The translations under genes and the position numbers were made by a program. Below, one piece after another: positions 2,631-28,175 of a stretch of DNA of 28,175 bases. Position 1 is the stretch's first letter, and each line of letters begins with the position of its first letter. The notes under the pieces were generated by a model, which saw only the letters and a program-made list of their open reading frames with translations, was not told the origin of the DNA and did not search any database. This DNA comes from Thermoproteota archaeon (GTDB lineage Archaea; Korarchaeota; Korarchaeia; Korarchaeales; Korarchaeaceae): NCBI GenBank assembly GCA_027491395.1, contig JAOZFI010000001.1:1-28175 (forward strand), given 5' to 3'.

Positions 2631-3924
2631 TTAGCCCCTCTCGCTCCACTTGGGCATGGGGAACACAGGTTCAGCAGTCGCGAACTCCTCAGGGAATACG
2701 GTATGGTACTTCCCGTCCTCCATCATCTGGACCACTATACCCTGACCGAGAGTGTTCTGGCCGCTGGAGTCGAACTTCACTCCCTTCCATGGCATGATCA
2801 GCTTGTCTCCGGGGATGTTCAGGCTAGCTAGGGCGTCTCTTATCGCCTTACGGAATTCCTCCAAGTTGGCAGGGCTGGCCTTCTTACCGGCCTCCTCCAG
2901 AGCGTAGTAGAGCACCCAAGCGCCGGTGTAGTCCCTAGCGGAGTTACCGTTGAGGTCCACCCCGTACTTTGCCTTGTACCTATCGTTCACCTCCTTCAGC
3001 TTGGGTATCTTCTGGCCGAGGTCCCAGTTGAAGACCTCCCTGCTGAAGATGTAGAACCCGTCCTTGCCCACCTGCTTGACGTAACTTGGGTTTATGAAGC
3101 CAGCATCCTGCGCCAGTATGGCCTTCGGGTTGAAGTCCCTCTGCTTGGCGGTCTGGACGAAGAGTATGGCGTCCTGCACGTAGCTGGCAACCAGCACGAG
3201 GTCAGGGTTGGCTGCCTTCAATGTATCTATCTCGCTGTCCATAGAGGTTATCGTAGCCGCGTGGTAGCTCACTACTTTCACTATCTGGTATCCGGCTTCG
3301 GTGAAGTATTTCTGCCAGGCCCTAGCTGTAGCGGTTCCCCACTCGGTGTCCTCATGTATTATTGCTATCCTCTTTATCTGGTTACCATACTTCTTGTTCA
3401 ACCAGTTCACGAAGTCTACGTGCTGCTTGGCAAACATCTCATCGTGAGGAGTGGTCCTGAAGAACCACTTGTAACCCCTAGCGGTGAGGGTGGGTGATGT
3501 AGACTCGGGGTTGAGCATCGGGACATGGGTACCTCTCACACACCTCGCTCACGGTCTTGGTGACGGCGCTCTGGTAGGAGCCAAGCATAGCAACTACTTT
3601 CTCCTCAGTTATTAGCCTCTCGGCCTCGGCTGCGCCGGTCTCGGGCTTGCCAGCGCTATCTCCAAACACAAGAACGATTTTAGCCCCTCCCAAGCTCTTT
3701 ATGCCGCCAGCCTTGTTTATCTCCTCGACGGCGAACTCCAATCCTCTCTTCAAGTCAGCACCGGTTTCAGCTAGCTTGCCCGACAGAGGGAGCACCACGC
3801 CGACCTTGACCTCCCTGACGGCGCCCCCTCCTCTCTGCATCATCAGAACGGCAACTGCCACGATAATGACAACGATTACAACTATAGCGGCAAGAAGGGA
3901 CTTACTTAAACCCCTTCTCCTCAC
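2631..3924 (-). pseudogene. livK: Liv-type ABC substrate-binding protein split by a single +1 frameshift at ~3527-3529 (real pseudogene or sequencing error)
   Basis: N-half (TM anchor, VKVGVVLPLSG, EINKAGGI, LGSYQSAV...VCERY) joins the C-half (HVPMLNPESTSPTLT...WFFRTTPHD) if one C is removed from TAC-CCAT. Likely GTG start at 3924 with AAAGGTGG SD. Confidence 0.88.
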
Positions 3925-3961
3925 CAATGCGACCACCTTTGATCTAATTGTGTTGGCAGCC

Positions 3962-4056
3962 TTACATATATACCTTTCCATTGAAAGGTAAAAATCTTTG
4001 AAAAATAAACGATTTTGACGACGGTAAAGATTAAAAGTTAGGTAAAGATCTTTGAT
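3962..4056. promoter_or_regulatory. Divergent liv/hyu promoter region with operator-like repeats
   Basis: Minus-strand GGAAAGG-TATATATG (BRE/TATA-like, ~3965-3979). Plus-strand GGTAAAG-ATTAAAAG (~4023-4037). Repeats GGTAAA(A/G)ATCTTTGA at 3987-4001 and 4041-4055. Inverted repeat TACCTTTC-CATT-GAAAGGTA at 3971-3990. Confidence 0.6.
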
Positions 4057-4086: not shown

Positions 4087-6126
4087 ATGTGGAGGACGGG
4101 AGTCGACATCGGGGGTACCTTCACCGATATCGTCTTCCTAGATGAGGAATCCGGTAAATTGAGTGTTCAAAAAGTTCTAACAACACCTAAAAGGCCTAGT
4201 AAAGCTGTTTTATCTGGTTTAGAGGAATCCGAGGTAGAGTTATCTGAGATCTCAACTCTAGTGCACGCCACGACCTTGGGTACCAATATGTTCTTGGGTC
4301 AGGAGGGATTGGTCCCACCCAAGGTGGCCCTGATTACCACCAAGGGCTTCAGAGACATCTTAGAGATAGGGAGGCAGCGCAGGCCCGAACTCTATAACCT
4401 CTTCTTCGAGAAGCCACCGCCCCTAGTAAGGAGGAGGGACAGGTACGAGATTGAGGAGAGAATTGACGCTTGGGGAAACGTGCTAATCCCTCTCAACGTT
4501 AAGGAAGCCGAGAAGCTGGCGGATCTCATCTGTGAGAAAGGGTATGAGGTGGTCGCCATCTCCTTCCTCCACAGCTACATGAACTCCATCCACGAGGAGA
4601 AGATGCTCCAAGTACTCAAGGAAAGATGCCCTGACCTCGATGTCATACTCTCATCTAGGGTGAACCCCGAGCACAAGGAGTATGAGAGGACTAGCACCAC
4701 GGTGGTCAACGCCTTCCTGAGGAAGCTCCTCTCAACCTATCTGATGAACTTGGAGAGAGAGCTCCGGAGGAAGGGATTTGAGGGCAGGCTCTTGGTCATG
4801 CAGAGCAGTGGTGGGGTGTCAAAGGTCGAGTACGCTGTAGAGAGGCCTGCGGCCTTCATAGAGTCCGGTCCTGCGGCAGGAGCGGTGGCCGTCGCGCACT
4901 ACTCCAAGCTGGCCGGAGATGATAGGGTGATAGGTTTCGACATGGGCGGAACCACAGCCAAGGCCTCGACGGTGATAGGTGGAGAGCCGACGGTCACCAC
5001 AGAGTATGAAGTGGGTGGGAAGGTCCACGCTGGCAGGCTGGTGAAGGGATCTGGCTACCCCGTGCGATTTCCCTTCATAGATCTGGCGGAGGTCAGCGCC
5101 GGCGGTGGCACCATAGCTTGGATAGATGAAGGTGGAGCTTTAAGGGTAGGTCCCATAAGCGCGGGCGCCGAGCCAGGTCCAGCCTGCTACGGGAGAGGAG
5201 GGGACAATGCCACTATAACTGATGCGAACTTCCTCTTGGGCAGGTTAGGGAAGAAGCTTGCGGGAGGAAGCCTGATACTCAGGAAGGAGCTGGCTGAGAA
5301 GGCCATTGGCGGCCTGGCTGTCGAACTGGGTTTGGAGATGGAGGAGGCTGCTATGGGCATAATAAAGCTGGCCAACACGGTCATGGCCAAGGCCCTGAGG
5401 ATAGTGACGGTGGAGAGGGGTCACGATCCTAGGGACTTCGTGATGTACGTCTTCGGCGGTGCTGGTCCCCTGCACGGGGTGGAGCTGGCGAGGGAACTAG
5501 AGGCGAAGGAGGTGCTAATACCCATCCATCCGGGAGTCTTTTCAGCGTTCGGGCTCCTCCTGACGGACTACAGGGTTGACACCGTCAGGAGCGTGATGAA
5601 GCTAGCAGAGGAGATCGAGGACAGGGAGGTGGAGGAGGCGCTGGCCCAGCTCGAGGTGGAGGCCAGCAAGGAGCTCGAGGGAGTTAGGGAGGTGCATGCA
5701 ATCCCTAGTTTGGACATGAGGTACAAGGGGCAGGCCTACGATCTCAACGTACCGTGGAGGGGATCGGTTGATCAGGCCATAAGGGACTTCCATGCCACTC
5801 ACGGGAGGGTATACGGGTTCTCATCTCCGGATGAGCCTGTAGAGGTAGTGAATGTAAGATTAGCACTGATAGGATCCCTTAGGAAGCCCCAGTTCCCGAG
5901 AATGAGGGCCAAGGAATATAGACCGGAGGCCGAGGGATCAAGGGAGGTGTACTTCGAGGGCAGGGGGTGGGTAGATGCGTCAGTTTACTCTAGGGAGAAG
6001 CTTAAGCCCGGCGCCACGCTTGAAGGCCCGGCTGTAGTGGAGGAGTACGACTCTACGACGTTGATCCCACCGGGACACCTGCTGAGGGTGGATGAGTTCG
6101 GAAACCTGAGGATAAGGGTGATGTGA
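4087..6126 (+). CDS. hyuA: Hydantoinase/oxoprolinase family subunit A (N-methylhydantoinase A-like, ATP-dependent)
   Basis: GVDIGGTFTD, HATTLGTN, EYERTSTTVVNA, ESGPAAG, DMGGTT, AGGGTIAW, SAGAEPGPACYG, FGGAGPLH motifs. Confidence 0.93.
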   Translation: MWRTGVDIGGTFTDIVFLDEESGKLSVQKVLTTPKRPSKAVLSGLEESEVELSEISTLVHATTLGTNMFLGQEGLVPPKVALITTKGFRDILEIGRQRRPELYNLFFEKPPPLVRRRDRYEIEERIDAWGNVLIPLNVKEAEKLADLICEKGYEVVAISFLHSYMNSIHEEKMLQVLKERCPDLDVILSSRVNPEHKEYERTSTTVVNAFLRKLLSTYLMNLERELRRKGFEGRLLVMQSSGGVSKVEYAVERPAAFIESGPAAGAVAVAHYSKLAGDDRVIGFDMGGTTAKASTVIGGEPTVTTEYEVGGKVHAGRLVKGSGYPVRFPFIDLAEVSAGGGTIAWIDEGGALRVGPISAGAEPGPACYGRGGDNATITDANFLLGRLGKKLAGGSLILRKELAEKAIGGLAVELGLEMEEAAMGIIKLANTVMAKALRIVTVERGHDPRDFVMYVFGGAGPLHGVELARELEAKEVLIPIHPGVFSAFGLLLTDYRVDTVRSVMKLAEEIEDREVEEALAQLEVEASKELEGVREVHAIPSLDMRYKGQAYDLNVPWRGSVDQAIRDFHATHGRVYGFSSPDEPVEVVNVRLALIGSLRKPQFPRMRAKEYRPEAEGSREVYFEGRGWVDASVYSREKLKPGATLEGPAVVEEYDSTTLIPPGHLLRVDEFGNLRIRVM

Positions 6127-10588: not shown

Positions 10589-11017
10589 ATGCCTTATATG
10601 AAGGTTGGAGATCTCCTGAAGGGGTACGGCTTCATAAGCGTTACCCCCGACAAGACCGTGAGAGAAGCGGCTAAGGTGATGGCGAACAAGGGGATCGGCT
10701 TCTTGGTGGTTGTGGACTCAAGCGACCCCCGAAAGGTGGTGGGGGTCCTCTCTGAGAGGGACATCATCAGGGCCTTGGCCAGCAACAAGGAGGATGCCAA
10801 GGTCGAGGAGCTCATGACCAAGGATGTCGTCACGGTGAAGGACACGGACACCCTCTATAAGGCAGCTAAGCTCATGAGGGAGCACAGAATCAGGCACCTC
10901 GTAGTCGTAAACGGGGACGGCATCCCGGTCGGTGTGCTCAGCATAAGGGATCTGACCTATGAGGAGGGCGCGCTCAAGGCCCTCGCCGAGGAGATAGAGA
11001 ACGAGTTCTCCCCTTGA
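10589..11017 (+). CDS. CBS-domain pair protein
   Basis: Two CBS repeats (VTPDKTVREAAKVM...VGVLSERDI; TLYKAAKLM...IRHLVVV...GVLSIRDL). Start probably ATG 10589 or 10598. Confidence 0.92.
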   Translation: MPYMKVGDLLKGYGFISVTPDKTVREAAKVMANKGIGFLVVVDSSDPRKVVGVLSERDIIRALASNKEDAKVEELMTKDVVTVKDTDTLYKAAKLMREHRIRHLVVVNGDGIPVGVLSIRDLTYEEGALKALAEEIENEFSP

Positions 11018-11474
11018 AGTAGGTGTAATAGAACCAGATCGCATCGTACTGTTGCTGGGTCTCTATAGAGCAAGGCCTCATGGACCTGAGGTGCTCAATG
11101 GCTTCATCAGGTCGCATTCCTTTTGAGACGAAGTAGGCGGCCAGGACGGTGCCGGTCCTCCCGCATCCCGCCAAACAGTGGACCAGCACCTTCTTTCCCT
11201 CTTCAACTTTCTGGTTGATCAGGTCGACTATCTGAGCTAGGAGCTCTACGGGCGGAGCCGAGAAGTTCTCGATGGGAAAGAAATAATGCTCCATTCCCAG
11301 CTCCCTCAATCTCTCGATCACACGCTCGTCATACTCCTCCGACTTCACGAGCGATACCACGACCTTTATTCCCTTATTTGCCAGCCAATCGATCTCCTCC
11401 GGTGAATAGAGAAAAGCGGAGCCGGCCACATGCTCGTCCACGAATGAGAAGTTTCTAGGCTTCCTCAATCTCAC
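10974..11474 (-). CDS. Dual-specificity/protein-tyrosine phosphatase family protein
   Basis: CX5R P-loop VLVHCLAGCGRTGTV, FPIENFSAP loop, RPCSIET..Q. Likely GTG start at 11474 overlapping the upstream TGA. Confidence 0.92.
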   Translation of the reverse strand: MRLRKPRNFSFVDEHVAGSAFLYSPEEIDWLANKGIKVVVSLVKSEEYDERVIERLRELGMEHYFFPIENFSAPPVELLAQIVDLINQKVEEGKKVLVHCLAGCGRTGTVLAAYFVSKGMRPDEAIEHLRSMRPCSIETQQQYDAIWFYYTYFKGRTRSLSPRRGP

Positions 11475-13288
11475 ACCGGCCAAGCCATATGCTTGAACGC
11501 TATAACTCTTAACACGTCTGACGCGTCCTCAACGGCATCTATCATGTTCTCGAAGAGCTCCACGAAGTCCCTCAGGTTCATGAGCTTGACCACATCTATC
11601 TTCACGTGGAGCAACTCCTCCATTGCCTGCTGATGTAATTCATCGAACACCGACTCGAGCGTGTCTATCTCGCTCACGATATCCAATGATGACTCGATGT
11701 CTTCTCTCATGATCTCTATTGCCCTGAAGAGCCTGTTTGAGATCCACTTGGAGACCCTAGCCATCTCCCTCATGAGCTCCCTTATCTTCGGGGGTATATC
11801 TTCTGGATCAAGGGTTCTGAGCCTCCTCGATGCGCCCAAGGCGAAAGAAGCGATCCTGTCCACCCTACCGACGAGCCTAGCGAAGTCTGCTTTGTCTTGG
11901 CCCGAGAGACTGCTGAACCAAAGTTGCCTGTCTATGGCTATCCTGATCTCGTCAGCTTGCCTCTCAAACTCCTTGACCATCTTGAAGCTCCTCTCATCCC
12001 TTACCCCACTTGAGTAATTGCTCACCATGTCGGCGAAGCTCTCTACCGCCTTCACGACCTTTGAAGCGTGATCCACCACCATGTCGTAGGCTGGCCAGAA
12101 GGGCCTCGTCTCCTTCATAAGGAAGATGAGGAAGGATCCAGCGGCCATCATCAGGGCGGTGAGCATGAAGGTACCTCCGAACCCGTAGACCTCGCCCACG
12201 GCCCCCAAGGTCAGGGCACCGGTCATATAGCCGAAGTCCCTGAGCGATGTGTACAGGCCCATTGATCGTCCCCTCACGGTGGGTGGGGCTGCGTCAGCCG
12301 AGATGGCGGGGAGTATAGGGTAGTAGAGGCCCACACCCAACCCTAAGGTGACGGAGGCTAGAGCCAAATATAGGGGATCTCCTAGGGAGTGGAGAAGATA
12401 TATGCTGACAGCCTTGATGGAGAATCCCATGAAGATGGGGATCCTCCTCCCGAAAACATCCGAGATCCTCCCGGAGAACGGCATCAGGAGGGCCCAAGAT
12501 AGAGTGTTCAGACCCTGTATGAAACCAATCTGGGTGGTCCCGAATCCCAAGGAACTCAGGTAGAGGGGTAAGAGCCCCCATATGAGCGCATCAGAGAACT
12601 GAGCTACGTGGCCGAGGAAGTAGGTGAGCCTCAGGGTCCCGCTTCTCAAACACATGGAATACGCTTGGACCGTGGGCATCTCCTCTACTTCTGCTCCCTC
12701 GACCCTCGTTTCGGAGATGCCCACCAAGGAGAGAATAAGAGCTAGGGCCGAGGTGACTAATGTTATGTAGAAGGCATCGGGTATGTTCCTGACTTCGGAC
12801 ACGTAGCCTCCCAAGAATGACCCAGCCGTGTATCCACCGTAAACAGAGGCCTCCATTATACCCAAACTAAGGCCGTGCCTCGCCCTCCCTCCGGCCTCCG
12901 ATAGAACTATCATCACACCGGAATCGACCAACCCCTGACTCCAACCCATCATGAGGGAGGCGGCGGCCACCATCAACAGGTCTCTGCTGTATATGAGCAG
13001 TAAGGTACCGGCGAAGAACATTCCAGCCCCTAAAACGACTGCTACCTTCCTGCCCAGCTTCTCAGACAAGTATCCGGCCAATAGATCAGCCAGACCCTTG
13101 AAGGCTCCGAATGAGAGTATGGGGAGGAGCACGATAAAGAGGTAAGAATAGGTCTGTTGGACGAATCCGCTCACGTACAGCGGGAGAACTGCCCTCTGCA
13201 CACCCATGCCCGCCCCTATTGAGAGGGTGGTCATGGCAGCAGAGACCATTATCCTTCCGGGGTCTCTCCCGCTCAATCCTCGAATCAC
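11471..13288 (-). CDS. MFS transporter fused to a C-terminal DUF47/PhoU-like domain
   Basis: About 390 aa of ~12-TM MFS with motif A twice (GYLSEKLGRK; GRISDVFGRR), then ~210 aa helical soluble domain (EFERQADEIR..I...L, DRIASFA, IDTLESVFDELH, FENMIDAVEDASD) typical of DUF47. Confidence 0.85.
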   Translation of the reverse strand: MIRGLSGRDPGRIMVSAAMTTLSIGAGMGVQRAVLPLYVSGFVQQTYSYLFIVLLPILSFGAFKGLADLLAGYLSEKLGRKVAVVLGAGMFFAGTLLLIYSRDLLMVAAASLMMGWSQGLVDSGVMIVLSEAGGRARHGLSLGIMEASVYGGYTAGSFLGGYVSEVRNIPDAFYITLVTSALALILSLVGISETRVEGAEVEEMPTVQAYSMCLRSGTLRLTYFLGHVAQFSDALIWGLLPLYLSSLGFGTTQIGFIQGLNTLSWALLMPFSGRISDVFGRRIPIFMGFSIKAVSIYLLHSLGDPLYLALASVTLGLGVGLYYPILPAISADAAPPTVRGRSMGLYTSLRDFGYMTGALTLGAVGEVYGFGGTFMLTALMMAAGSFLIFLMKETRPFWPAYDMVVDHASKVVKAVESFADMVSNYSSGVRDERSFKMVKEFERQADEIRIAIDRQLWFSSLSGQDKADFARLVGRVDRIASFALGASRRLRTLDPEDIPPKIRELMREMARVSKWISNRLFRAIEIMREDIESSLDIVSEIDTLESVFDELHQQAMEELLHVKIDVVKLMNLRDFVELFENMIDAVEDASDVLRVIAFKHMAWPV

Positions 13289-13833
13289 CTGAGGGTCTCG
13301 AACTCCTCACTGAGGAACTCGGGTAGAAGGGCGCACACCTCCCTATAAAAATCGACCCGGGAGTTGGCCCTCACGCACTCGCAGAACTGGGGCACCCACT
13401 GGAGCAGATGATCCTCCAAGAAGGATTTAGCCTCGCCCAAGGCCTCTTCCTCGCCTAATAGATAGAGGTAGCGGAGGAATTCGAGCTCCGCTGATATATG
13501 CTCTGGGAGGTCCTTGAACTCGTCGGAAATATCGACGCCGAAGGCCCTCATCCTGTCCTGAACGTCAACGGCTAGGTGGGACATGAGCACCTTTTCCTCG
13601 GTCCTGTACACCGATTCGTAGGGTGGACAGGGGATCTCCTTGCCAAATCTGAAGAGCCTTACGTACTCTTGATTCATTAGGTGGGGATCTTCCACCCTTA
13701 AATCAGCTTGAGGCCACCTCTCCCTAACCTTCTCAAGTAAAGGTTCGATCTCCTTTACCCACTCCTCCGTGGGCCTCATGAACGCTAGGGTGAAGAACTC
13801 GAGTAGCTCGGCACTCTCCTCTCTCTCGCTCAT
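13285..13833 (-). CDS. TorD/DmsD family redox-enzyme maturation chaperone
   Basis: EYVRLF, PPYESVY, LPEHISAELEFL, FLEDHLLQWVPQF signature motifs. Confidence 0.9.
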   Translation of the reverse strand: MSEREESAELLEFFTLAFMRPTEEWVKEIEPLLEKVRERWPQADLRVEDPHLMNQEYVRLFRFGKEIPCPPYESVYRTEEKVLMSHLAVDVQDRMRAFGVDISDEFKDLPEHISAELEFLRYLYLLGEEEALGEAKSFLEDHLLQWVPQFCECVRANSRVDFYREVCALLPEFLSEEFETLR

Positions 13834-13863: not shown

Positions 13864-14250
13864 TTATCTAAGGCAGCCGAGCGGCAGGTATCTCTCGCTG
13901 ACACCCTTTATCTTCCTCAAGGAGCCCTCGAGCTCGAGGATAGTTTGAGAATCCCCCTCGACGAAACTCACGTCAACACACACGCCCTCGGTGTGATGAT
14001 GCGTTCTGGTGACCACGCAGCTCCCGTACCTCTCCAATACTTTGGAGACCAATTCGCTGCTCCTCCCCTCCGATACCACGATCAGCACACCCCTGCACCT
14101 GTGGGGGGTTAGGAGGTGAACCCTATCCTCCATGACCTCCACCAATATACTCTGGATCAGAGATGACCTGCTCATCCCCAGCTTGGAGGATAGCTCATCG
14201 ATCTTCTCCACCAAGTCCTCGGGGAGGGAGATACCGAATCTCCTCTTCAT
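13864..14250 (-). CDS. NikR-like ribbon-helix-helix metal-responsive regulator
   Basis: RHH N-terminus (RFGISLPEDLVEKIDE...SRSSLI); ACT-like C-terminus with THHHTEGVC metal motif. Confidence 0.85.
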   Translation of the reverse strand: MKRRFGISLPEDLVEKIDELSSKLGMSRSSLIQSILVEVMEDRVHLLTPHRCRGVLIVVSEGRSSELVSKVLERYGSCVVTRTHHHTEGVCVDVSFVEGDSQTILELEGSLRKIKGVSERYLPLGCLR

Positions 14251-14256
14251 GCTGCC

Positions 14257-15069
14257 TTACCTTCCCCTTAGCAGGGATATCAGGTAGAATCCCAGCATGA
14301 CGATGCCTATAACCCCCGAAGGTGCCAATCCGGTGGCCACGCTTATCAGCAGGCCCATCAGGCCGCCGGCCAGCGACAGGAGGAACCCGAGTATCACTGC
14401 CACCCTGCCGCTCTTGGCTAGAGCGGACGCGGTTATGCCGGGGAGAAGGACCATTACGTGCTCGACCACGAATCCAACGGACTTCAACAGTCCAACGGTG
14501 GCTATGGCTAAAGAGGCGACCATCATGGCGTCGTAAAGGGAAGCCCTGACCCCCGACAGCCTGACGAAGTCTCTGTCCACCCCTATGAGTATGTGCTCCC
14601 TCAGGAAGGGAACCGTCAGGATCAGAACTATGGCGGAGACGGCGACGGTGAACCATACATCCTCCCAAGTCACGAGCAAGGGATCCCCGATTATGTATGA
14701 CCAGACGCTGGTCTCCATAGGGAAGGCCGTCAGTATGTAGTAGAGGGATATGGTGGTGAGGGACACGCTTATCGAGACGAATATGGCTGTGGCTGAGTCG
14801 GGCCTGACTCCCCTAGATATGAGGAGGGAAACCGTGGACACCAAAATGAGGCTGAAGATAATGGAGCAGATCTCGAACGGGCATCCCAGCAGGTTCATTG
14901 TTATTATGGCGAGGAGGGCCGAGAGAAGAGCAGAATGTGGAAGGGCTCCAGCTAGGAAGAGGAGCCTCCTCGCCACCACCACGGGGCTAAGCACCCCGTA
15001 GACAATAGAGGCGAGGCCCACCACTACGATCCATCTGGGATCCAGCATCAGCTCAAACGGCATAGCCAT
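14257..15069 (-). CDS. Metal (Zn/Mn/Ni/Co) ABC transporter permease (ZnuB-like)
   Basis: VVARRLLFLAGALPHSAL, YIIGDPL, DRDFVRLSGV, VGFVV...LLPG motifs. Confidence 0.88.
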   Translation of the reverse strand: MAMPFELMLDPRWIVVVGLASIVYGVLSPVVVARRLLFLAGALPHSALLSALLAIITMNLLGCPFEICSIIFSLILVSTVSLLISRGVRPDSATAIFVSISVSLTTISLYYILTAFPMETSVWSYIIGDPLLVTWEDVWFTVAVSAIVLILTVPFLREHILIGVDRDFVRLSGVRASLYDAMMVASLAIATVGLLKSVGFVVEHVMVLLPGITASALAKSGRVAVILGFLLSLAGGLMGLLISVATGLAPSGVIGIVMLGFYLISLLRGR

Positions 15070-15823
15070 CCACCACGTGGACGCACTTCTCTACTATGAA
15101 GACGCTCCTCCCGTAAACCTTGCTAAGCAGCTCCTCCTTTATGACCTGATGGGGCGGGCCCATCGCTACTACCCCCCTGTTCACGACCATAATCAGCTTG
15201 GCCCTGTCGAGGAACATGCTTGGGTCGTGGCTGCTCACCATCACCAGCTTAGATGAGGACATCTCCTTGATCATCCTGACCAAGTCAACCCTTCCCATCG
15301 GATCCACTGCAGTGAGGGGCTCGTCCATTATCAGGATGGAGGGATCCCATACCAAGGCCCTAGCTATGAAGACCCTCTGTCTCTGGCCCCCTGATAGCTC
15401 TGACAGCGGTTTGCCTGCTATATCATCGACTCCCATCCTCTTGAGGGCAGACTCTATCCTCCCCCTCTCGTTCTTTGGGAAGGAGAGCCTGGGAGGCCTC
15501 CTTCTCAGGGCTATGGCGGACTCGACTATTTCCCTGACGCTGACCGGGAAGCTGTAATCCTCACCCTTCCACTGGGGGACGTAGCCTATGAGCCTGCCGG
15601 CCCTCTCTGGCTTGCCAGTCACATCCTCTCCGTTGACTAGGACTTTTCCTTTAGCAGGTATCAGTCCTAAGAGCGCCTTGAACAGGGTGGTTTTTCCAGC
15701 GCCATTGGGACCCATTACCACCACTAGACCGGGTCCCTCGAGTCGAAAGTTCTCGTTAGAGAATATCTCCTCATCATCGTAGCTTACCTCGAGTCCCCTC
15801 ACCTCAAGGGTCAGCGCGCTCAT
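15053..15823 (-). CDS. Metal ABC transporter ATP-binding protein (ZnuC-like)
   Basis: GPNGAGKTT, IGYVPQ, LSGGQRQR, LIMDEP, SSHD. Likely ATG at 15823 (MSALTLEV) rather than the GTG at 15862. Confidence 0.92.
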   Translation of the reverse strand: MSALTLEVRGLEVSYDDEEIFSNENFRLEGPGLVVVMGPNGAGKTTLFKALLGLIPAKGKVLVNGEDVTGKPERAGRLIGYVPQWKGEDYSFPVSVREIVESAIALRRRPPRLSFPKNERGRIESALKRMGVDDIAGKPLSELSGGQRQRVFIARALVWDPSILIMDEPLTAVDPMGRVDLVRMIKEMSSSKLVMVSSHDPSMFLDRAKLIMVVNRGVVAMGPPHQVIKEELLSKVYGRSVFIVEKCVHVVDGYAV

Positions 15824-15875
15824 CGTGCACAAATTGGGTATATCAAATATAAAGGAGTGCACAAACTAAAGGGTG
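15824..15875. promoter_or_regulatory. Compact bidirectional promoter with two GTGCACAAA boxes
   Basis: AAATATAAA at 15845-15853 is centred between divergent ATGs at 15823 and 15876. GTGCACAAA at 15825-15833 and 15857-15865. Confidence 0.65.
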
Positions 15876-16838
15876 ATGAGGGCGGGCGCTGTGTTACTGC
15901 TGCTGGCTCTGGCACTGTTGGTTCAATCGTCTGAGGGCTCACCTAGAGGCCTCAATGTGATCGTGACCTTCTCCAACCTGAAGTACGATGTGGATCTCTT
16001 AGCATGCTCCTCCGACAGGGTGGTGTCCCTCGTACCATCCGGAGTCGATCCGCACGACTACGAGCTCAAGCCGGAGGATGTAAACTTGTTAAAGGAGGCA
16101 GACATCGTAGTATCAACAGCTCATGCTCCCTTCGAGAGGCTCATCAGGGAAAAGGTTGCCTCAGGTGAAATAAAAGCGGAGCTAGTGGAGATTCCTAAGC
16201 TAGGACTCAAGATCTTGACGAATCCAGCAACCAAGCAACCTAACTATCACATGCCCATCTACGATCCCGATAACTACCTCAAGTTCATGGGGCGTCTGAG
16301 AGAGATAATGGCTAGAGAGAACCCCGAGTGCGCCTCTCAGTATAAGGAGAGGTACGATCGGATAAGGGAGAGGATCTTAGAGATTAAGATGGAAGCGCCC
16401 CGCTTGAACCTGTCGGCTGTCGCCGTGAGTCCCGTCGCCCAGTACGCGGTCGAATGGGCTGGAGTGAAGGTGAGGTACCTGCTCCTTAAGGAGAGGGGGG
16501 TGCCAGCAACGCCTCCTGAGCTGGCGGAGATCAGGAGGAGGGCTCTTACTGGAGAGATAGGGATCATGTTATTGGTAGGGAATGCGAGGACCCCGCTCAA
16601 TAAGAAGGCTGTGGAAATGGCTGAGGAAATGGGCATACCTTGGATAAACGTCCCATCACCGCTCGAACCAAGGAGCATCATCGAAAAGCTTGAAGACGTG
16701 GTGAGAGCCCTCTCTAACATCGGAGAAGTTAGATCGGCGAGGATGAGATATGGGTATATCCCGCTGATTGTCACAGTGGTTGTGATAATCGCCTCACTGT
16801 CTGCGGCGCTCTACTTGCTGAGGAGGCAACCTAATTAG
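15876..16838 (+). CDS. Metal ABC transporter substrate-binding protein (ZnuA/TroA family) with C-terminal TM anchor
   Basis: Signal peptide; VPSGVDPHDYELKPEDV, NYHMPIYDP, NPECASQYKER; C-terminal TM helix plus RRQPN. Confidence 0.88.
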   Translation: MRAGAVLLLLALALLVQSSEGSPRGLNVIVTFSNLKYDVDLLACSSDRVVSLVPSGVDPHDYELKPEDVNLLKEADIVVSTAHAPFERLIREKVASGEIKAELVEIPKLGLKILTNPATKQPNYHMPIYDPDNYLKFMGRLREIMARENPECASQYKERYDRIRERILEIKMEAPRLNLSAVAVSPVAQYAVEWAGVKVRYLLLKERGVPATPPELAEIRRRALTGEIGIMLLVGNARTPLNKKAVEMAEEMGIPWINVPSPLEPRSIIEKLEDVVRALSNIGEVRSARMRYGYIPLIVTVVVIIASLSAALYLLRRQPN

Positions 16839-19318: not shown

Positions 19319-19408
19319 ATGACTTCCAGTAGTGCTTCCTCAAATGGATTCGCGCCCAAAAAAACAAAACACTTATTACTCTCCACCCTGAGTGGGAGCT
19401 GAGGGCAA

Positions 19409-19834
19409 ATGGACGAAGTGGAGCAAATAGGGCTCAACTGGGATCGTTTCTCCCAGAGAATAAAGGAGGATCCCTACGAGTTCCTCAAGCTGGGGCCCGA
19501 GGAACTCAGGAGGGTGATAATGGAGAACCTCACCCCGTTGGCCAAGTTCCTAGGAGTAAATGCGATAATATACGAGTGCGGCAGGTGGTACGCTAGGATA
19601 GAGAGGATAGATCTGGAGGATGAGGAGCCAGAGCTGAGTGAGGTCATGGACAAGGAATGCTATGTCTCCTTGGAGGACGAGAATGGGTGCGATGTAGTGG
19701 TCTTGGCCATCAGGGAGGATGAGACAGGAGATGTGGAGGCATTCGCCCGTTCTGCTGGTGAAATACTTGAGATAATATTCAACGGGAAGGCCTGCGAGAA
19801 TCAAGACGTCCCGTGGGATGACTTCCAGTGGTGA
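19409..19834 (+). CDS. Acidic hypothetical protein (141 aa)
   Basis: GAGGG SD; host-like codon usage; D/E-rich with four Cys; no family recognised. Confidence 0.75.
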   Translation: MDEVEQIGLNWDRFSQRIKEDPYEFLKLGPEELRRVIMENLTPLAKFLGVNAIIYECGRWYARIERIDLEDEEPELSEVMDKECYVSLEDENGCDVVVLAIREDETGDVEAFARSAGEILEIIFNGKACENQDVPWDDFQW

Positions 19835-25573: not shown

Positions 25574-27172
25574 TCACCTCCTCCATAGGAACCAGTACAC
25601 AGCCAGCACTAGAACGACTAGTATCAGGCTCAGGTAGAGAGCCACTCCCATCAGCTGCCAAGCAGGTGGGGGATTGATGGTGAGCTCGGTTTGCACATCC
25701 ATTATACCGTAGATGGCCCATGGCTTTCTTCCCATCTCCCTGACCCCCCATCCAAGGAAGCTAGTGATCTGCGCGATGGCAGGAGATATCACAGCTATCC
25801 AGAGGACCCATGAGGGCCATTCCTCTCTTCTGAATGCGTAGAAGACGGCTAGCAGACCTATCAACCCTAAGAGAACGCCCAGTCCTATTTTCGTATAGTA
25901 CAGGTAGTGTATTATCAGGGGTGGCCTGTAATCGATGGTGATCACATCGTAGGACGGAAGCTTTGCATTAGGGTCTCCGTATGCTAGCAAGGGCATGAAC
26001 TGCTCCACTAATTGTTTCATGCCCAGCATGCCTGGTAGGCTGGTTATCTGAGTGGTAGTGGCCTCCATGGCCGCGAACTTCTCCGGATTGTACTTGGCCA
26101 CGGCGGCGCCCATGGCATGGCCAGACCCGGTTCCCTGAATGGCTATCAAGATCAAGGCCACCGCGGCGGCGAACTTTATGGCCCTCAGAAAGTACCCCCT
26201 ATCCCTGTCATCCTTGGACGTCTTGAGAAGCCTCAGGGCATAACCACCCAGTAGGGTGAATGCAGACACGGTGAGTGCAGCGCCCAAGGCATGGACGTAT
26301 GTGGCTAGGTATCCCTTGGAGAGGAAGGTTATCATGAATGTTCCAGCATTCTTCACCGTGTTCGCCACTATGGCATCGATCACAGTCTTTAGGGACACGG
26401 ATGAGAGGGACTGCAAGGCTTCGGGCTTGATGACGGCCGCAAGTGTGCTCTCACCTATCGTCTTACCGGCGAAGGCCTCTCTCATGAGCACCCTGACCAA
26501 GCCTGAGGGGAGAGTAACTGTTACCTGCTCTGGAGTGGCACTGATGACCTTGGCGCCTACAGCCGCCAGCTTATTCACATCCAAGGCTTGGGCTATCTGA
26601 GCTGGCACGAATAGGAGGACATCCGGAGGTGCCCAACTGGAAGGACCTGCTAATGGATCGTAGTGGGCTATCACGTTGACTGGAGCCTGCATGAAGGAGT
26701 TAACGCTTAGTATCATAGCTCCTGAGTACCAAGCACCCACGAAGGCCAGTATACCTATGATGAGGTGCGTCCTCGGGGACACCTTGTCCTCTGCATAGAA
26801 GTACATGTAGATGAAGATCCCCTCCATGAGAAAAGCGAATATCTCCATGTACAACGGGAAGTATATGTACCTACCCGCTGCCTCCGTCAAGTTAGGCCAC
26901 AACAGGACTAGTCCAAATTCAGAGGCGGTTCCCGTGGCGGCTCCCACTGCGAAGACCGCCACGAAGGCCTTCGCCAAGGTTCTCGAGAGTCTCTTCCAAT
27001 CATCATTACGAGTCCTTAGCCATATAGCCTCAGTGACCACTGCTAGAAAAGACAAACCCAGCACGTACTGCAGGATGAACCAGTGAACCTCTATACCTAT
27101 CATTGAGAGCAGTCTTTCCCAGCCAGCCGGGTAACCAGAAAACCACTGCTGAATCAAGCCGAAGGGGTCCAT
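25574..27172 (-). CDS. cydA: Cytochrome bd quinol oxidase subunit I
   Basis: EVHWF (H19), FAVGAATG, EIFAFLME (E99/E107), NSFMQAP, YVHA (H186), PEKFAAME (K252/E257), GWGVREMGRKPW (E445); E. coli numbering. Confidence 0.93.
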   Translation of the reverse strand: MDPFGLIQQWFSGYPAGWERLLSMIGIEVHWFILQYVLGLSFLAVVTEAIWLRTRNDDWKRLSRTLAKAFVAVFAVGAATGTASEFGLVLLWPNLTEAAGRYIYFPLYMEIFAFLMEGIFIYMYFYAEDKVSPRTHLIIGILAFVGAWYSGAMILSVNSFMQAPVNVIAHYDPLAGPSSWAPPDVLLFVPAQIAQALDVNKLAAVGAKVISATPEQVTVTLPSGLVRVLMREAFAGKTIGESTLAAVIKPEALQSLSSVSLKTVIDAIVANTVKNAGTFMITFLSKGYLATYVHALGAALTVSAFTLLGGYALRLLKTSKDDRDRGYFLRAIKFAAAVALILIAIQGTGSGHAMGAAVAKYNPEKFAAMEATTTQITSLPGMLGMKQLVEQFMPLLAYGDPNAKLPSYDVITIDYRPPLIIHYLYYTKIGLGVLLGLIGLLAVFYAFRREEWPSWVLWIAVISPAIAQITSFLGWGVREMGRKPWAIYGIMDVQTELTINPPPAWQLMGVALYLSLILVVLVLAVYWFLWRR

Positions 27173-27203
27173 CTAGATCCCCTTCGAGAAGCCTAACTTT
27201 TTT

Positions 27204-27236
27204 GAATTTAAAACTATTGGTTAGACATATTAACCA
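27204..27236 (-). promoter_or_regulatory. cydAA' TATA box with adjacent inverted repeat
   Basis: TTTTAAATTC (minus, 27204-27213); TGGTTA-N7-TAACCA at 27218-27236; embedded in an AT-rich tract. Confidence 0.5.
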
Positions 27237-27647
27237 TATGAATTTATAATATTTAGGTATATTTATTTATATTATTTTGAGATAAATTTCTCTATATATG
27301 TAATAGAACTTTGATTCTCTCTGAAAATGTAATCCGATTTTCCCGTGTTGATGATCGTAGGTACCATCTACATTAGGCGAAGATATTGCCTAAAATTCAT
27401 CATGATAATGGAATTAGACAATAACGCTCATGACTATCTCCTCTCGTGCTCCTTTCCATGATTCGGATATCGTTTCATCGCATAGAAAGAATATCATGAC
27501 GCCCACATCCAGCCTCGTAATAAAAGGAAGGATGCCCATCAGCTTGTCTGGATTTCCTCTTCCAGATTCAGTGCGAGCATAGATCCTAGTGGGATCATCG
27601 GCCCCACGCCCGAGCAGGCAAGGAATGTGAGGAGGGTAAGATAAATC

Positions 27648-28175
27648 TCACTTTCTCATACTCTCGTAAACTATTCGGTTTCTTATCTTACCAACACCCC
27701 ATATCTCTATCTCCACAACATCACCATGTTTGAGAAGTCTTGGAGGATTGGAGAAGCCACCCACCCCAGAGGGAGTTCCAGTGGCTATCACATCCCCTGG
27801 TTCTAGAGTCATCCCCTTGCTCAATATAGTGATCACATCCCAAGGTTTGAATATCATTTGACTTGAGCTAGCGTGCTGTCTCCTCTCCCCGTTAACCCAC
27901 GTGGTTATCCCTAGCTCTTCGAAGTCCACCGAAACGTCTATCCAAGGGCCTATTGGAGCAAATGAGTCGATACTCTTGCCCCTGACCCACTGACCATCCC
28001 TCCTCTGAAGGTCCCTAGCGGTGACGTCGTTGAATGCCATGTAACCCAGAATGGACCCCTTGGCCCCCTTCTCGTCGAGCCTACGCCCACCCTTCTTCAT
28101 AACAAAGGCTATTTCACCCTCATAATCCACCTCCCTAACGTAATCATCAGGTACTATCACATCGTCGTAGGGACC
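27648..28175 (-). CDS. Fumarylacetoacetate hydrolase family protein (5' part outside window)
   Basis: VDYEGE, NDVTARDLQ, QWVRGKS.DSFAPIGPW, TLEPGDVIATGTPSGVG motifs. Confidence 0.93.
   Translation of the reverse strand, partial: GPYDDVIVPDDYVREVDYEGEIAFVMKKGGRRLDEKGAKGSILGYMAFNDVTARDLQRRDGQWVRGKSIDSFAPIGPWIDVSVDFEELGITTWVNGERRQHASSSQMIFKPWDVITILSKGMTLEPGDVIATGTPSGVGGFSNPPRLLKHGDVVEIEIWGVGKIRNRIVYESMRK

Follow-up and report, generated by a model that had tools for sequence, protein, structure and literature searches.

The window analyzed here is a stretch of 28,175 nucleotides (positions 1 to 28,175 of the forward strand of contig JAOZFI010000001.1, GenBank assembly GCA_027491395.1) from a Thermoproteota archaeon of the Korarchaeaceae. 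It carries a gene in which a carrier of the major facilitator superfamily (MFS) is continued, on the same polypeptide, by a domain of the DUF47 (PhoU_div) branch of the PhoU superfamily. We hold it to be virtually certain that the protein has this architecture, and the fusion is real, old and conserved. The interpretation that we favor, with a confidence somewhat better than even, is that the gene represents a family of archaeal MFS carriers of single origin, each of which would be equipped with a cis-acting cytoplasmic sensor or regulator domain resembling PitR. The gene and its parts are as follows.

11471..13288, minus strand: the whole MFS-DUF47 gene, 605 codons plus a TGA stop, with a GTG start
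12119..13261, minus strand: MFS membrane domain, residues 10-390, with 12 transmembrane (TM) helices
12089..12118, minus strand: inter-domain linker, residues 391-400, the MKETRPFWPA region
11489..12088, minus strand: cytoplasmic DUF47/PhoU_div domain, residues 401-600, with six helices arranged as two bundles of three
11951..11965, minus strand: acidic motif E442-R-Q-A-D446, in bundle helix 2
11642..11656, minus strand: acidic motif E545-S-V-F-D549, in bundle helix 5
11516..11551, minus strand: acidic stretch E580...D584..E587-D588..D591, in bundle helix 6

The original prediction, made from the sequence of the window, described one uninterrupted open reading frame (ORF) of 605 amino acids (aa) in which an MFS permease runs into a C-terminal DUF47/PhoU-like domain. 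The frame is present, on the minus strand, which had not been stated, and both domains are complete. A Pfam scan gave MFS_1 (PF07690) at 127.5 bits over the first ~395 residues (gathering cut-off 33.4) and PhoU_div/DUF47 (PF01865) at 78.7 bits over residues 402-597 (gathering cut-off 24.4), with the latter match covering profile positions 11-212 of 214. The junction that had been placed at ...LIFLMKETRP, near 12105, corresponds to residues 387-396, with P396 ending at 12101, and the three acidic motifs that had been singled out are all there: ERQAD at residues 442-446, ESVFD at 545-549 and EDASD at 587-591. NCBIfam agrees with Pfam on both halves, yet no curated cut-off is reached; the hypothetical-equivalog model of stand-alone DUF47 proteins, TIGR00153, scores the fused domain at 58.6 bits against a cut-off of 104.3. 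Neither Na_Pi_cotrans (PF02690) nor PhoU (PF01895) is among the Pfam matches of the protein, and no SPX family occurs among the nine Pfam families that match it at E<=1. Motif A of MFS proteins has the form G-x-x-x-D/E-x-x-G-R-K/R and lies in the TM2-TM3 loop, where the protein has G72-YLSEKL-G79-R80-K81; the motif is repeated as G273-RISDVF-G280-R281-R282 in the TM8-TM9 loop. At both ends the gene overlaps a neighbour: its GTG start shares the sequence GTGA with the upstream stop, and its 3' end runs into the start of the gene downstream. An in-frame TTG lies at 13276, four codons past the GTG, and because the close homologs P0002, P0004 and P0005 begin at this position, it may be the true start, which would give a protein of 601 aa.

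A frame of this kind might be produced artificially if two adjacent genes were joined by mis-assembly, by a sequencing error or by the loss of a stop codon. The window's genome is a draft of 62 contigs, and no evidence supporting such an artefact was found; we assign it a negligible probability. Fused homologs from assemblies independent of this one show the same single frame, on contigs that reach 1.3 Mb. A word-indexed protein search found 73 proteins: 18 full-length clusters with PF01865 and PF07690 (P0002-P0019, 598-618 aa, 94-43% identity), one fragment of 366 aa that likewise has both domains, and 54 proteins of about 25% identity that consist of the MFS part only. With both domains kept in one frame in 18 clusters, the match goes far beyond what chance would give. 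An exhaustive profile search of 1.84 billion representatives, clustered at 50%, listed 150 matches, among which at least 31 are fused at full length (to profile position ~600) and six are partial; PF01865 is detected at E<=1e-5 in 26 of the 29 newly found full-length representatives, the exceptions being P0096, P0100 and P0101. ESM Atlas holds one cluster of 64 members, all archaeal, in which every member has both domains. In the class to which the window's genome belongs (40 genomes, 7 genera), DUF47 lies inside an MFS-length frame in half of the genomes (20/40). Eighteen of these frames measure 603-708 aa, and the only two shorter ones (in G026 and G009) end at contig ends. Likewise, 20 of 25 loci from species-representative genomes, searched with an alignment of the 19 closest fused sequences, encode the fused gene or a part of it truncated by the contig. 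Moreover, conservation in the linker region peaks at the junction. An assembly artefact or a split gene is thus ruled out by single-frame homologs across assemblies and class genomes: where the original prediction had proposed looking for two separate genes in orthologs, one gene is kept in independent assemblies, and no split form was seen among the 40 class genomes.

The architecture had also been called unfamiliar. Unusual it is, but not unique, given the at least 31 full-length representatives and the ESM Atlas cluster. The species-representative genomes with the fused gene include metagenome-assembled genomes (MAGs) labelled Thermoproteota or Crenarchaeota and placed in the class of the window's genome, and one close fused homolog bears the name Candidatus Korarchaeota. 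The fused gene also occurs in two Thermofilaceae-labelled MAGs (35-36% identity) and in three Asgard archaea, one each of the Thor-, Heimdall- and Hodarchaeota (28-29% identity). These sequences were already public, annotated only as 'MFS transporter', and a literature search, which missed most subscription journals, found no paper on the MFS-DUF47 architecture. A word-indexed search for other DUF47 fusion partners returned this family alone and is uninformative on other fusions.

Trees of the two halves bear on how often the fusion arose. In a tree of the MFS half (residues 14-395; 47 fused and 49 unfused sequences, the latter being those that rank in the top 150 of the exhaustive profile search), the fused set is separated by one branch with an SH-aLRT support of 96, and a single change of state between fused and unfused is needed. 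For the DUF47 half, 38 fused sequences were compared with 22 stand-alone ones (from the class of the window's genome plus three Chloroflexia), and one branch again separates the two sets, with weaker support (SH-aLRT 88); the PiT-adjacent copies of the class form one clade and the ABC-adjacent copies another, each supported at 99. Fused sub-clades are concordant between the trees. Both were quick trees without mixture models, that of the MFS half being computed with IQ-TREE under LG+G4. Since all fused proteins lie beyond a single branch in the tree of each half, the topologies fit one old fusion event. The fusion would thus have arisen once, early, and been kept in Korarchaeia-type, Thermofilaceae-labelled and Asgard archaea.

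The two halves are also distinct in the predicted structure. An AlphaFold2 model of all 605 residues, based on an alignment of 96 sequences, has a mean pLDDT of 95.9 and a pTM of 0.93 and consists of 12 TM helices followed by six long ones (401-600), between which residues 391-400 form a linker without helical structure. The structural check suggested in the original prediction hence yields a 12-TM MFS fold, a linker and a six-helix DUF47-like bundle. A pTM of 0.93 for a chain of two domains implies that the mutual arrangement of the MFS and DUF47 domains is confidently predicted. The DUF47 domain is predicted to lie on the cytoplasmic side because the loops follow the positive-inside rule, with 14 lysine or arginine residues inside versus two outside. 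In keeping with an MFS carrier, the TM helices make up two halves of six, and both termini are cytoplasmic. With the full model, Foldseek matches are confined to the membrane half (TMq at most 0.56), the best being OxlT (TMt 0.85), followed by VMAT1/2 (0.82-0.85), NorA, SfMCT and YajR; among these matches there is no solved structure that contains both parts. The DUF47 domain modelled alone (residues 396-605) again forms six helices (pLDDT 95.1) and matches the DUF47 structures 2olt, 2iiu and 3l39 and the PhoU structures 1t72, 1t8b and 4q25 with TM scores of 0.69-0.83; all 10 matches at E<=0.001 are DUF47 or PhoU structures. By profile and by fold, therefore, the C-terminus proves to be what the original prediction took it for. 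The next matches of the lone domain are chains of plant ALMT/QUAC anion channels, at a TMq of about 0.5 and a probability of 1.00. The matching part of these chains is presumably their cytoplasmic helical domain, and in ALMT/QUAC a PhoU-like helical bundle may be joined to yet another anion carrier.

Conserved residues are found in both halves and in the linker. In the bundle, none of the 38 fused or 22 stand-alone DUF47 sequences departs from E442, D446, E545, D549 and E580, and D477 is conserved in 97% of the fused and in all of the stand-alone ones. D584, E587 and D588 are kept in 68-79% of fused and 82-100% of stand-alone sequences, with E587 at 79% and 100%, respectively. Conserved in the fused family only are T394, P396, W398, K439, D465 and K599. 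Several of these lie in the linker, where the 19 closest members all share K392, E393, T394, P396, F397, W398, P399 and A400; among the 38 diverse members, P396 remains invariant and W398 is present in 89%. Finally, the membrane half has charges in the middle of its helices, R32 (TM1), K64 (TM2), E146 (TM5), D233 (TM7) and D351 (TM11), that are conserved at 97-100% in the fused family, R32 being invariant and K64 at 97% in the 38 diverse members.

With the 49 unfused relatives included, conservation of the same five charges still reaches at least 90%. Their presence in unfused relatives indicates that the fused proteins use the transport chemistry of an unnamed, widespread MFS subfamily, and on sequence criteria the membrane half is classed as a 12-TM secondary transporter, DHA1-like and outside any named subfamily. 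From the residues themselves we infer only that an arginine, a lysine and three acidic residues would suit the transport, together with protons, of an anion, a zwitterion or a metal-anion complex. C-terminal cytoplasmic domains of other kinds are present in four unfused-type relatives (P0132, P0136, P0137 and P0113), of which three have rhodanese and one has a domain resembling lipid-A acyltransferases, and the subfamily seems prone to gaining C-terminal modules.

DUF47 is found beside transporters elsewhere in the same class. PiT occurs in 13 of the 40 class genomes, and in all 13 a stand-alone DUF47 adjoins it. A further lineage of stand-alone DUF47 proteins, the third after the fused and PiT-adjacent ones, has 227-238 aa and is encoded by the last gene of an ABC importer operon. 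In genome G006 (L034:3989-8463), this operon consists of a 529-aa double permease and two ATPases with TOBE_2, followed by DUF47, and the same ORF order is found in L036, L037, L038 and L039. Pfam and NCBIfam scans, which covered the L034 genes only, gave as best NCBIfam matches sulfate/tungstate/molybdate models for the permease and PhnT2/WtpC for the ATPases, all below their cut-offs. Directly upstream of the DUF47-linked ABC operon in G006 lies a gene for a 334-aa fusion of an AbrB/MazE-type DNA-binding domain with PhoU (L058:1214-2218). In this one archaeal class, DUF47 thus appears attached to three types of transporter, and the constant pairing with PiT together with the ABC-operon lineage indicates that DUF47 behaves as a transporter-attached module.

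These pairings can be set against a recent survey of 926 bacterial genomes, in which every clade of the PhoU superfamily goes with a single family of importers, namely Pst for PhoU, Pit for PitR and NptA for a PhoU domain in fused form (PMC13170248, 2026). There, PitR co-occurs with PitA in 97.8% of PitR genomes, with adjacent genes and one exception, and PhoU accompanies Pst in 99.4%; PhoU, PitR and NptA's PhoU domain are all described as regulating phosphate homeostasis in Staphylococcus aureus. Two pieces of background in the original prediction, that DUF47 proteins normally stand alone next to PiT transporters and that PhoU domains are fused to Na/Pi cotransporters, accord with the survey, the former also with the 13 PiT genomes of the class. 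The survey sampled single-domain PF01865 proteins and bacteria only, which places MFS-DUF47 outside its scope, and the pairing of DUF47 with an ABC importer falls outside its PitR-PitA scheme.

Within the window's genome, which is 98.4% complete, we found no PiT, no NptA (PF02690 is absent) and no DUF47 other than the fused one, and there is therefore no partner of PiT or NptA type on which the domain could act in trans. PiT is absent as well from the genera g1 (0/21), g3 (0/1) and g4 (0/4), where the fused DUF47 is the sole DUF47. We consider it likely that the attached domain regulates its own carrier in cis. In the mechanism that we favor, a single polypeptide would combine an MFS carrier, a conserved linker of 10 residues and a complete PitR-like six-helix bundle; the bundle would dock on the cytoplasmic face of the carrier and act as a sensor or throttle, with its conserved acidic cluster reading cytoplasmic phosphate or metal-phosphate and setting carrier activity accordingly. 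Such a mode would be comparable to that of PhoU on Pst, PitR on PitA and the fused PhoU domain on NptA. It is also plausible, as originally suggested, that the putative carrier is gated directly by phosphate or a metal. The substrate would perhaps be inorganic phosphate, a related tetrahedral oxyanion or a metal-phosphate complex. The architecture, its conservation and single origin, the topology, the fold and the lack of PiT are results of the analysis; docking, cis-regulation, ligand, substrate and direction of transport are points that we infer.

The comparison with known systems is closest for PitR. Stand-alone DUF47 proteins of the PitR type (3l39, 2iiu, 2olt) belong to the same family as the fused domain by profile (78.7 bits) and fold (TM score 0.72-0.83), they share its invariant acidic positions, and PitR is functionally tied to the PitA/PiT transporter. 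However, PitR-type proteins are separate chains of ~205-230 aa, whereas the domain described here is covalently fused, its partner is an MFS carrier and not PiT, and it forms a lineage of its own, apart from PiT-adjacent and ABC-adjacent DUF47s. YajR, which bears a small extra cytoplasmic C-terminal domain, and NorA are the closest solved relatives in sequence (3wdo from E. coli for YajR; 7lo7 and others for NorA) and share the 12-TM fold, but identity in the fold alignments is only 17-19%, and these pumps have no PhoU-like domain. To our knowledge, an invariant arginine in TM1, as seen with R32, is not a feature of NorA/YajR pumps. SPX, a domain unrelated to DUF47, is N-terminal in the plant SPX-MFS proteins. 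These vacuolar phosphate transporters (PHT5/VPT) join an MFS carrier to a cytoplasmic helical sensor of phosphate status, according to PMC4821872, and would be the closest analogy for the working of MFS-DUF47, an analogy and not a homology. NptA likewise is described, in PMC13170248, as a phosphate-related secondary transporter with a helical domain of the PhoU superfamily on the same polypeptide. It differs in both parts, with Na_Pi_cotrans (PF02690) instead of MFS and the PhoU branch PF01895 instead of PF01865.

The genes that surround the fusion are listed below.

10974..11483, minus strand: Cys-based phosphatase of DSP/PTP type, 169 aa, with an HCxxGxxR motif; downstream, overlapping
13285..13833, minus strand: TorD/NarJ-type chaperone-like protein (PF02613, 88.9 bits); upstream, overlapping
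13864..14250, minus strand: NikR-like regulator, metal-uptake cluster
14257..15069, minus strand: ABC-3 permease, metal-uptake cluster
15053..15862, minus strand: ABC ATPase, metal-uptake cluster
15873..16838, plus strand: ZnuA-like binding protein, divergent, metal-uptake cluster

The minus-strand genes are tightly packed in the order ABC ATPase, ABC-3 permease, NikR-like regulator, TorD-like protein, MFS-DUF47 and DSP/PTP phosphatase. This phosphatase is directly downstream of the fusion in all eight loci of at least 51% identity that have downstream sequence, and within the window's genus it adjoins the fusion in every genome that bears one (10 of 10), as it does in L017. It does so in none of the 10 fusion-bearing genomes of genera g2-g5, and genomes of the window's genus that lack the fusion retain the phosphatase; an obligate partnership between the two is thereby ruled out. 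A partnership with the TorD-like protein, and with it a molybdate/tungstate reading, is unsupported: no blastp match to the TorD-like gene was obtained in loci L012, L014 and L017. Elsewhere, the window's genome has four molybdopterin-enzyme matches and a second PBP_like_2 system with a small permease. In L009, a close relative, two ORFs (5386-6004; matches of 70 aa and 113 aa) take the place of a single TorD-like gene upstream of the fusion, which suggests that this gene is decaying there. Co-linearity of the fusion with the Znu/NikR cluster is confined to loci of at least 72% identity. No conserved neighbours of the fusion were found in its distant members, where the neighbours are unrelated, and therefore genomic context leaves the function unfixed.

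Away from this cluster, a binding protein of the Peripla_BP_6 (branched-chain amino-acid) type is split at 2631..3981 on the minus strand into two overlapping ORFs, of which 3478..3981 matches profile positions 1-90 and 2631..3539 matches 91-315. This is a frameshift, reflecting either a pseudogene or a sequencing error. The GC content falls to 0.436 at 27001..28000, compared with ~0.50-0.58 elsewhere in the window, and no tRNA genes were found anywhere in the window.

Alternatively, the carrier may work as a proton antiporter of DHA1 type whose export substrate is not phosphate but, for example, a metal ion, a metallophore, a cationic metabolite or a xenobiotic, and DUF47 would only tune this efflux to phosphate or metal status. 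We regard this as rather unlikely, though it is the main alternative. The PDB sequence matches of the MFS half are NorA (72.6 bits), YajR (53.8 bits) and VMAT, and the best NCBIfam match is the multidrug-resistance superfamily model TIGR00880, whose 60.5 bits do not reach the cut-off of 131; the DHA1 subfamily models MdtG, EmrD and Tet remain far below their cut-offs. Acidic residues embedded in the membrane are typical of proton-coupled antiporters, and E146, D233 and D351 are of this kind. In addition, loci of the window's genus show the gene in co-linear order with znuCB and the NikR-like regulator. Nevertheless, that neighbourhood is absent from the other lineages, an invariant R32 and an almost invariant K64 are basic residues unusual for pumps of cations or drugs, and every other DUF47 examined accompanies an importer of anion type, be it PiT or the ABC system of oxyanion type.

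Several of these results weigh against the carrier of phosphate with its own PitR-like regulator that we favor, and others must be counted with them. Beyond the pump-like sequence matches, the best fold match is to an oxalate:formate antiporter (OxlT), and no specific likeness to known MFS phosphate carriers is seen: among the 25 of 29 families listed, the PgtP model TIGR00881 reaches 12.9 bits where its cut-off is 407.75. In the PDB, distant fused members match only NorA and drug pumps, and in the window's genus the Znu-type/NikR context points to metals as much as to phosphate. The window's genome possesses Pst, with a PstS-like protein, a PstC at 270 bits (above cut-off) and a PstA-like permease, and it has three other PhoU-domain ORFs, one of which adjoins the Pst genes. 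The fusion and the PiT/DUF47 pair coexist in 5 of 20 fusion genomes, and 12 of the 40 class genomes have neither. A role as strict replacement of PiT is ruled out by these counts, and the fusion is neither a strict substitute for PiT nor essential. Finally, a two-hybrid study in S. aureus (PMC11705898, 2024) reports that PitR forms homodimers, with no interaction detected between PitR and PhoR or phosphate transporter proteins, and direct contact between DUF47 and a transporter is thus not established even there.

Among the 56 PDB matches of the MFS half, the sole carrier of OPA/PHS type is SLC37A4 (25.8 bits, with no stretch passing alone), and PiPT and GlpT are not found. A Pho84-type identity was considered for the longer fused sub-clades and rejected for P0098 and P0081, whose sole matches are NorA and drug transporters. 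Phosphate or an oxyanion is a plausible but unproven substrate, given that the MFS half is DHA1-like (NorA, YajR), and we give it somewhat less than an even chance. The PhoU-domain ORF adjoining Pst, on contig C48 of the window's genome (G000, ~19373-19639), has an open frame of 345 aa.

The other PhoU-domain proteins also bring up the possibility that the protein acts mainly as a transceptor, in which the MFS half would report substrate flux and the DUF47 half would signal to a cytoplasmic regulator, for example the genome's proteins of AbrB-PhoU type, as PhoU and PitR do towards PhoR in bacteria. The three further PhoU-domain ORFs would provide candidates for such signaling, and in G006 an AbrB-PhoU gene adjoins the DUF47-linked ABC operon. 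However, no regulator gene is consistently linked to the fusion, and the mid-membrane charges common to unfused relatives argue for a working carrier, which makes a transceptor quite improbable. A carrier regulated in cis by its DUF47 domain is the interpretation that we retain.

Proteins of the PhoU superfamily are central to phosphate homeostasis, but how they act on transporters is unsettled. The fusion adds a fourth pairing between this superfamily and a transporter, in archaea that include Asgard lineages, and provides the DUF47 branch with a new transporter partner and a new covalent form. As a natural 'Rosetta-stone', it is evidence for DUF47 working at a carrier's cytoplasmic face, and it offers a compact one-chain system of very high prediction confidence for structural and biochemical study of sensing and gating. 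It also gives a lead to the function of the widespread, unnamed MFS subfamily whose mid-membrane charges it shares. A more specific possibility, which we think unlikely although of some consequence, is that the protein is a sensor-gated valve, wherein a carrier of the proton-antiporter type would export excess cytoplasmic phosphate or oxyanion when DUF47 detects an overload. If this were true, the family would do in prokaryotes what SPX-gated exporters and sequesterers (SPX-MFS/PHT5, XPR1) do in eukaryotes, with Asgard archaea already possessing such a valve, and would provide the first natural evidence of DUF47/PitR acting by direct contact with a transporter.

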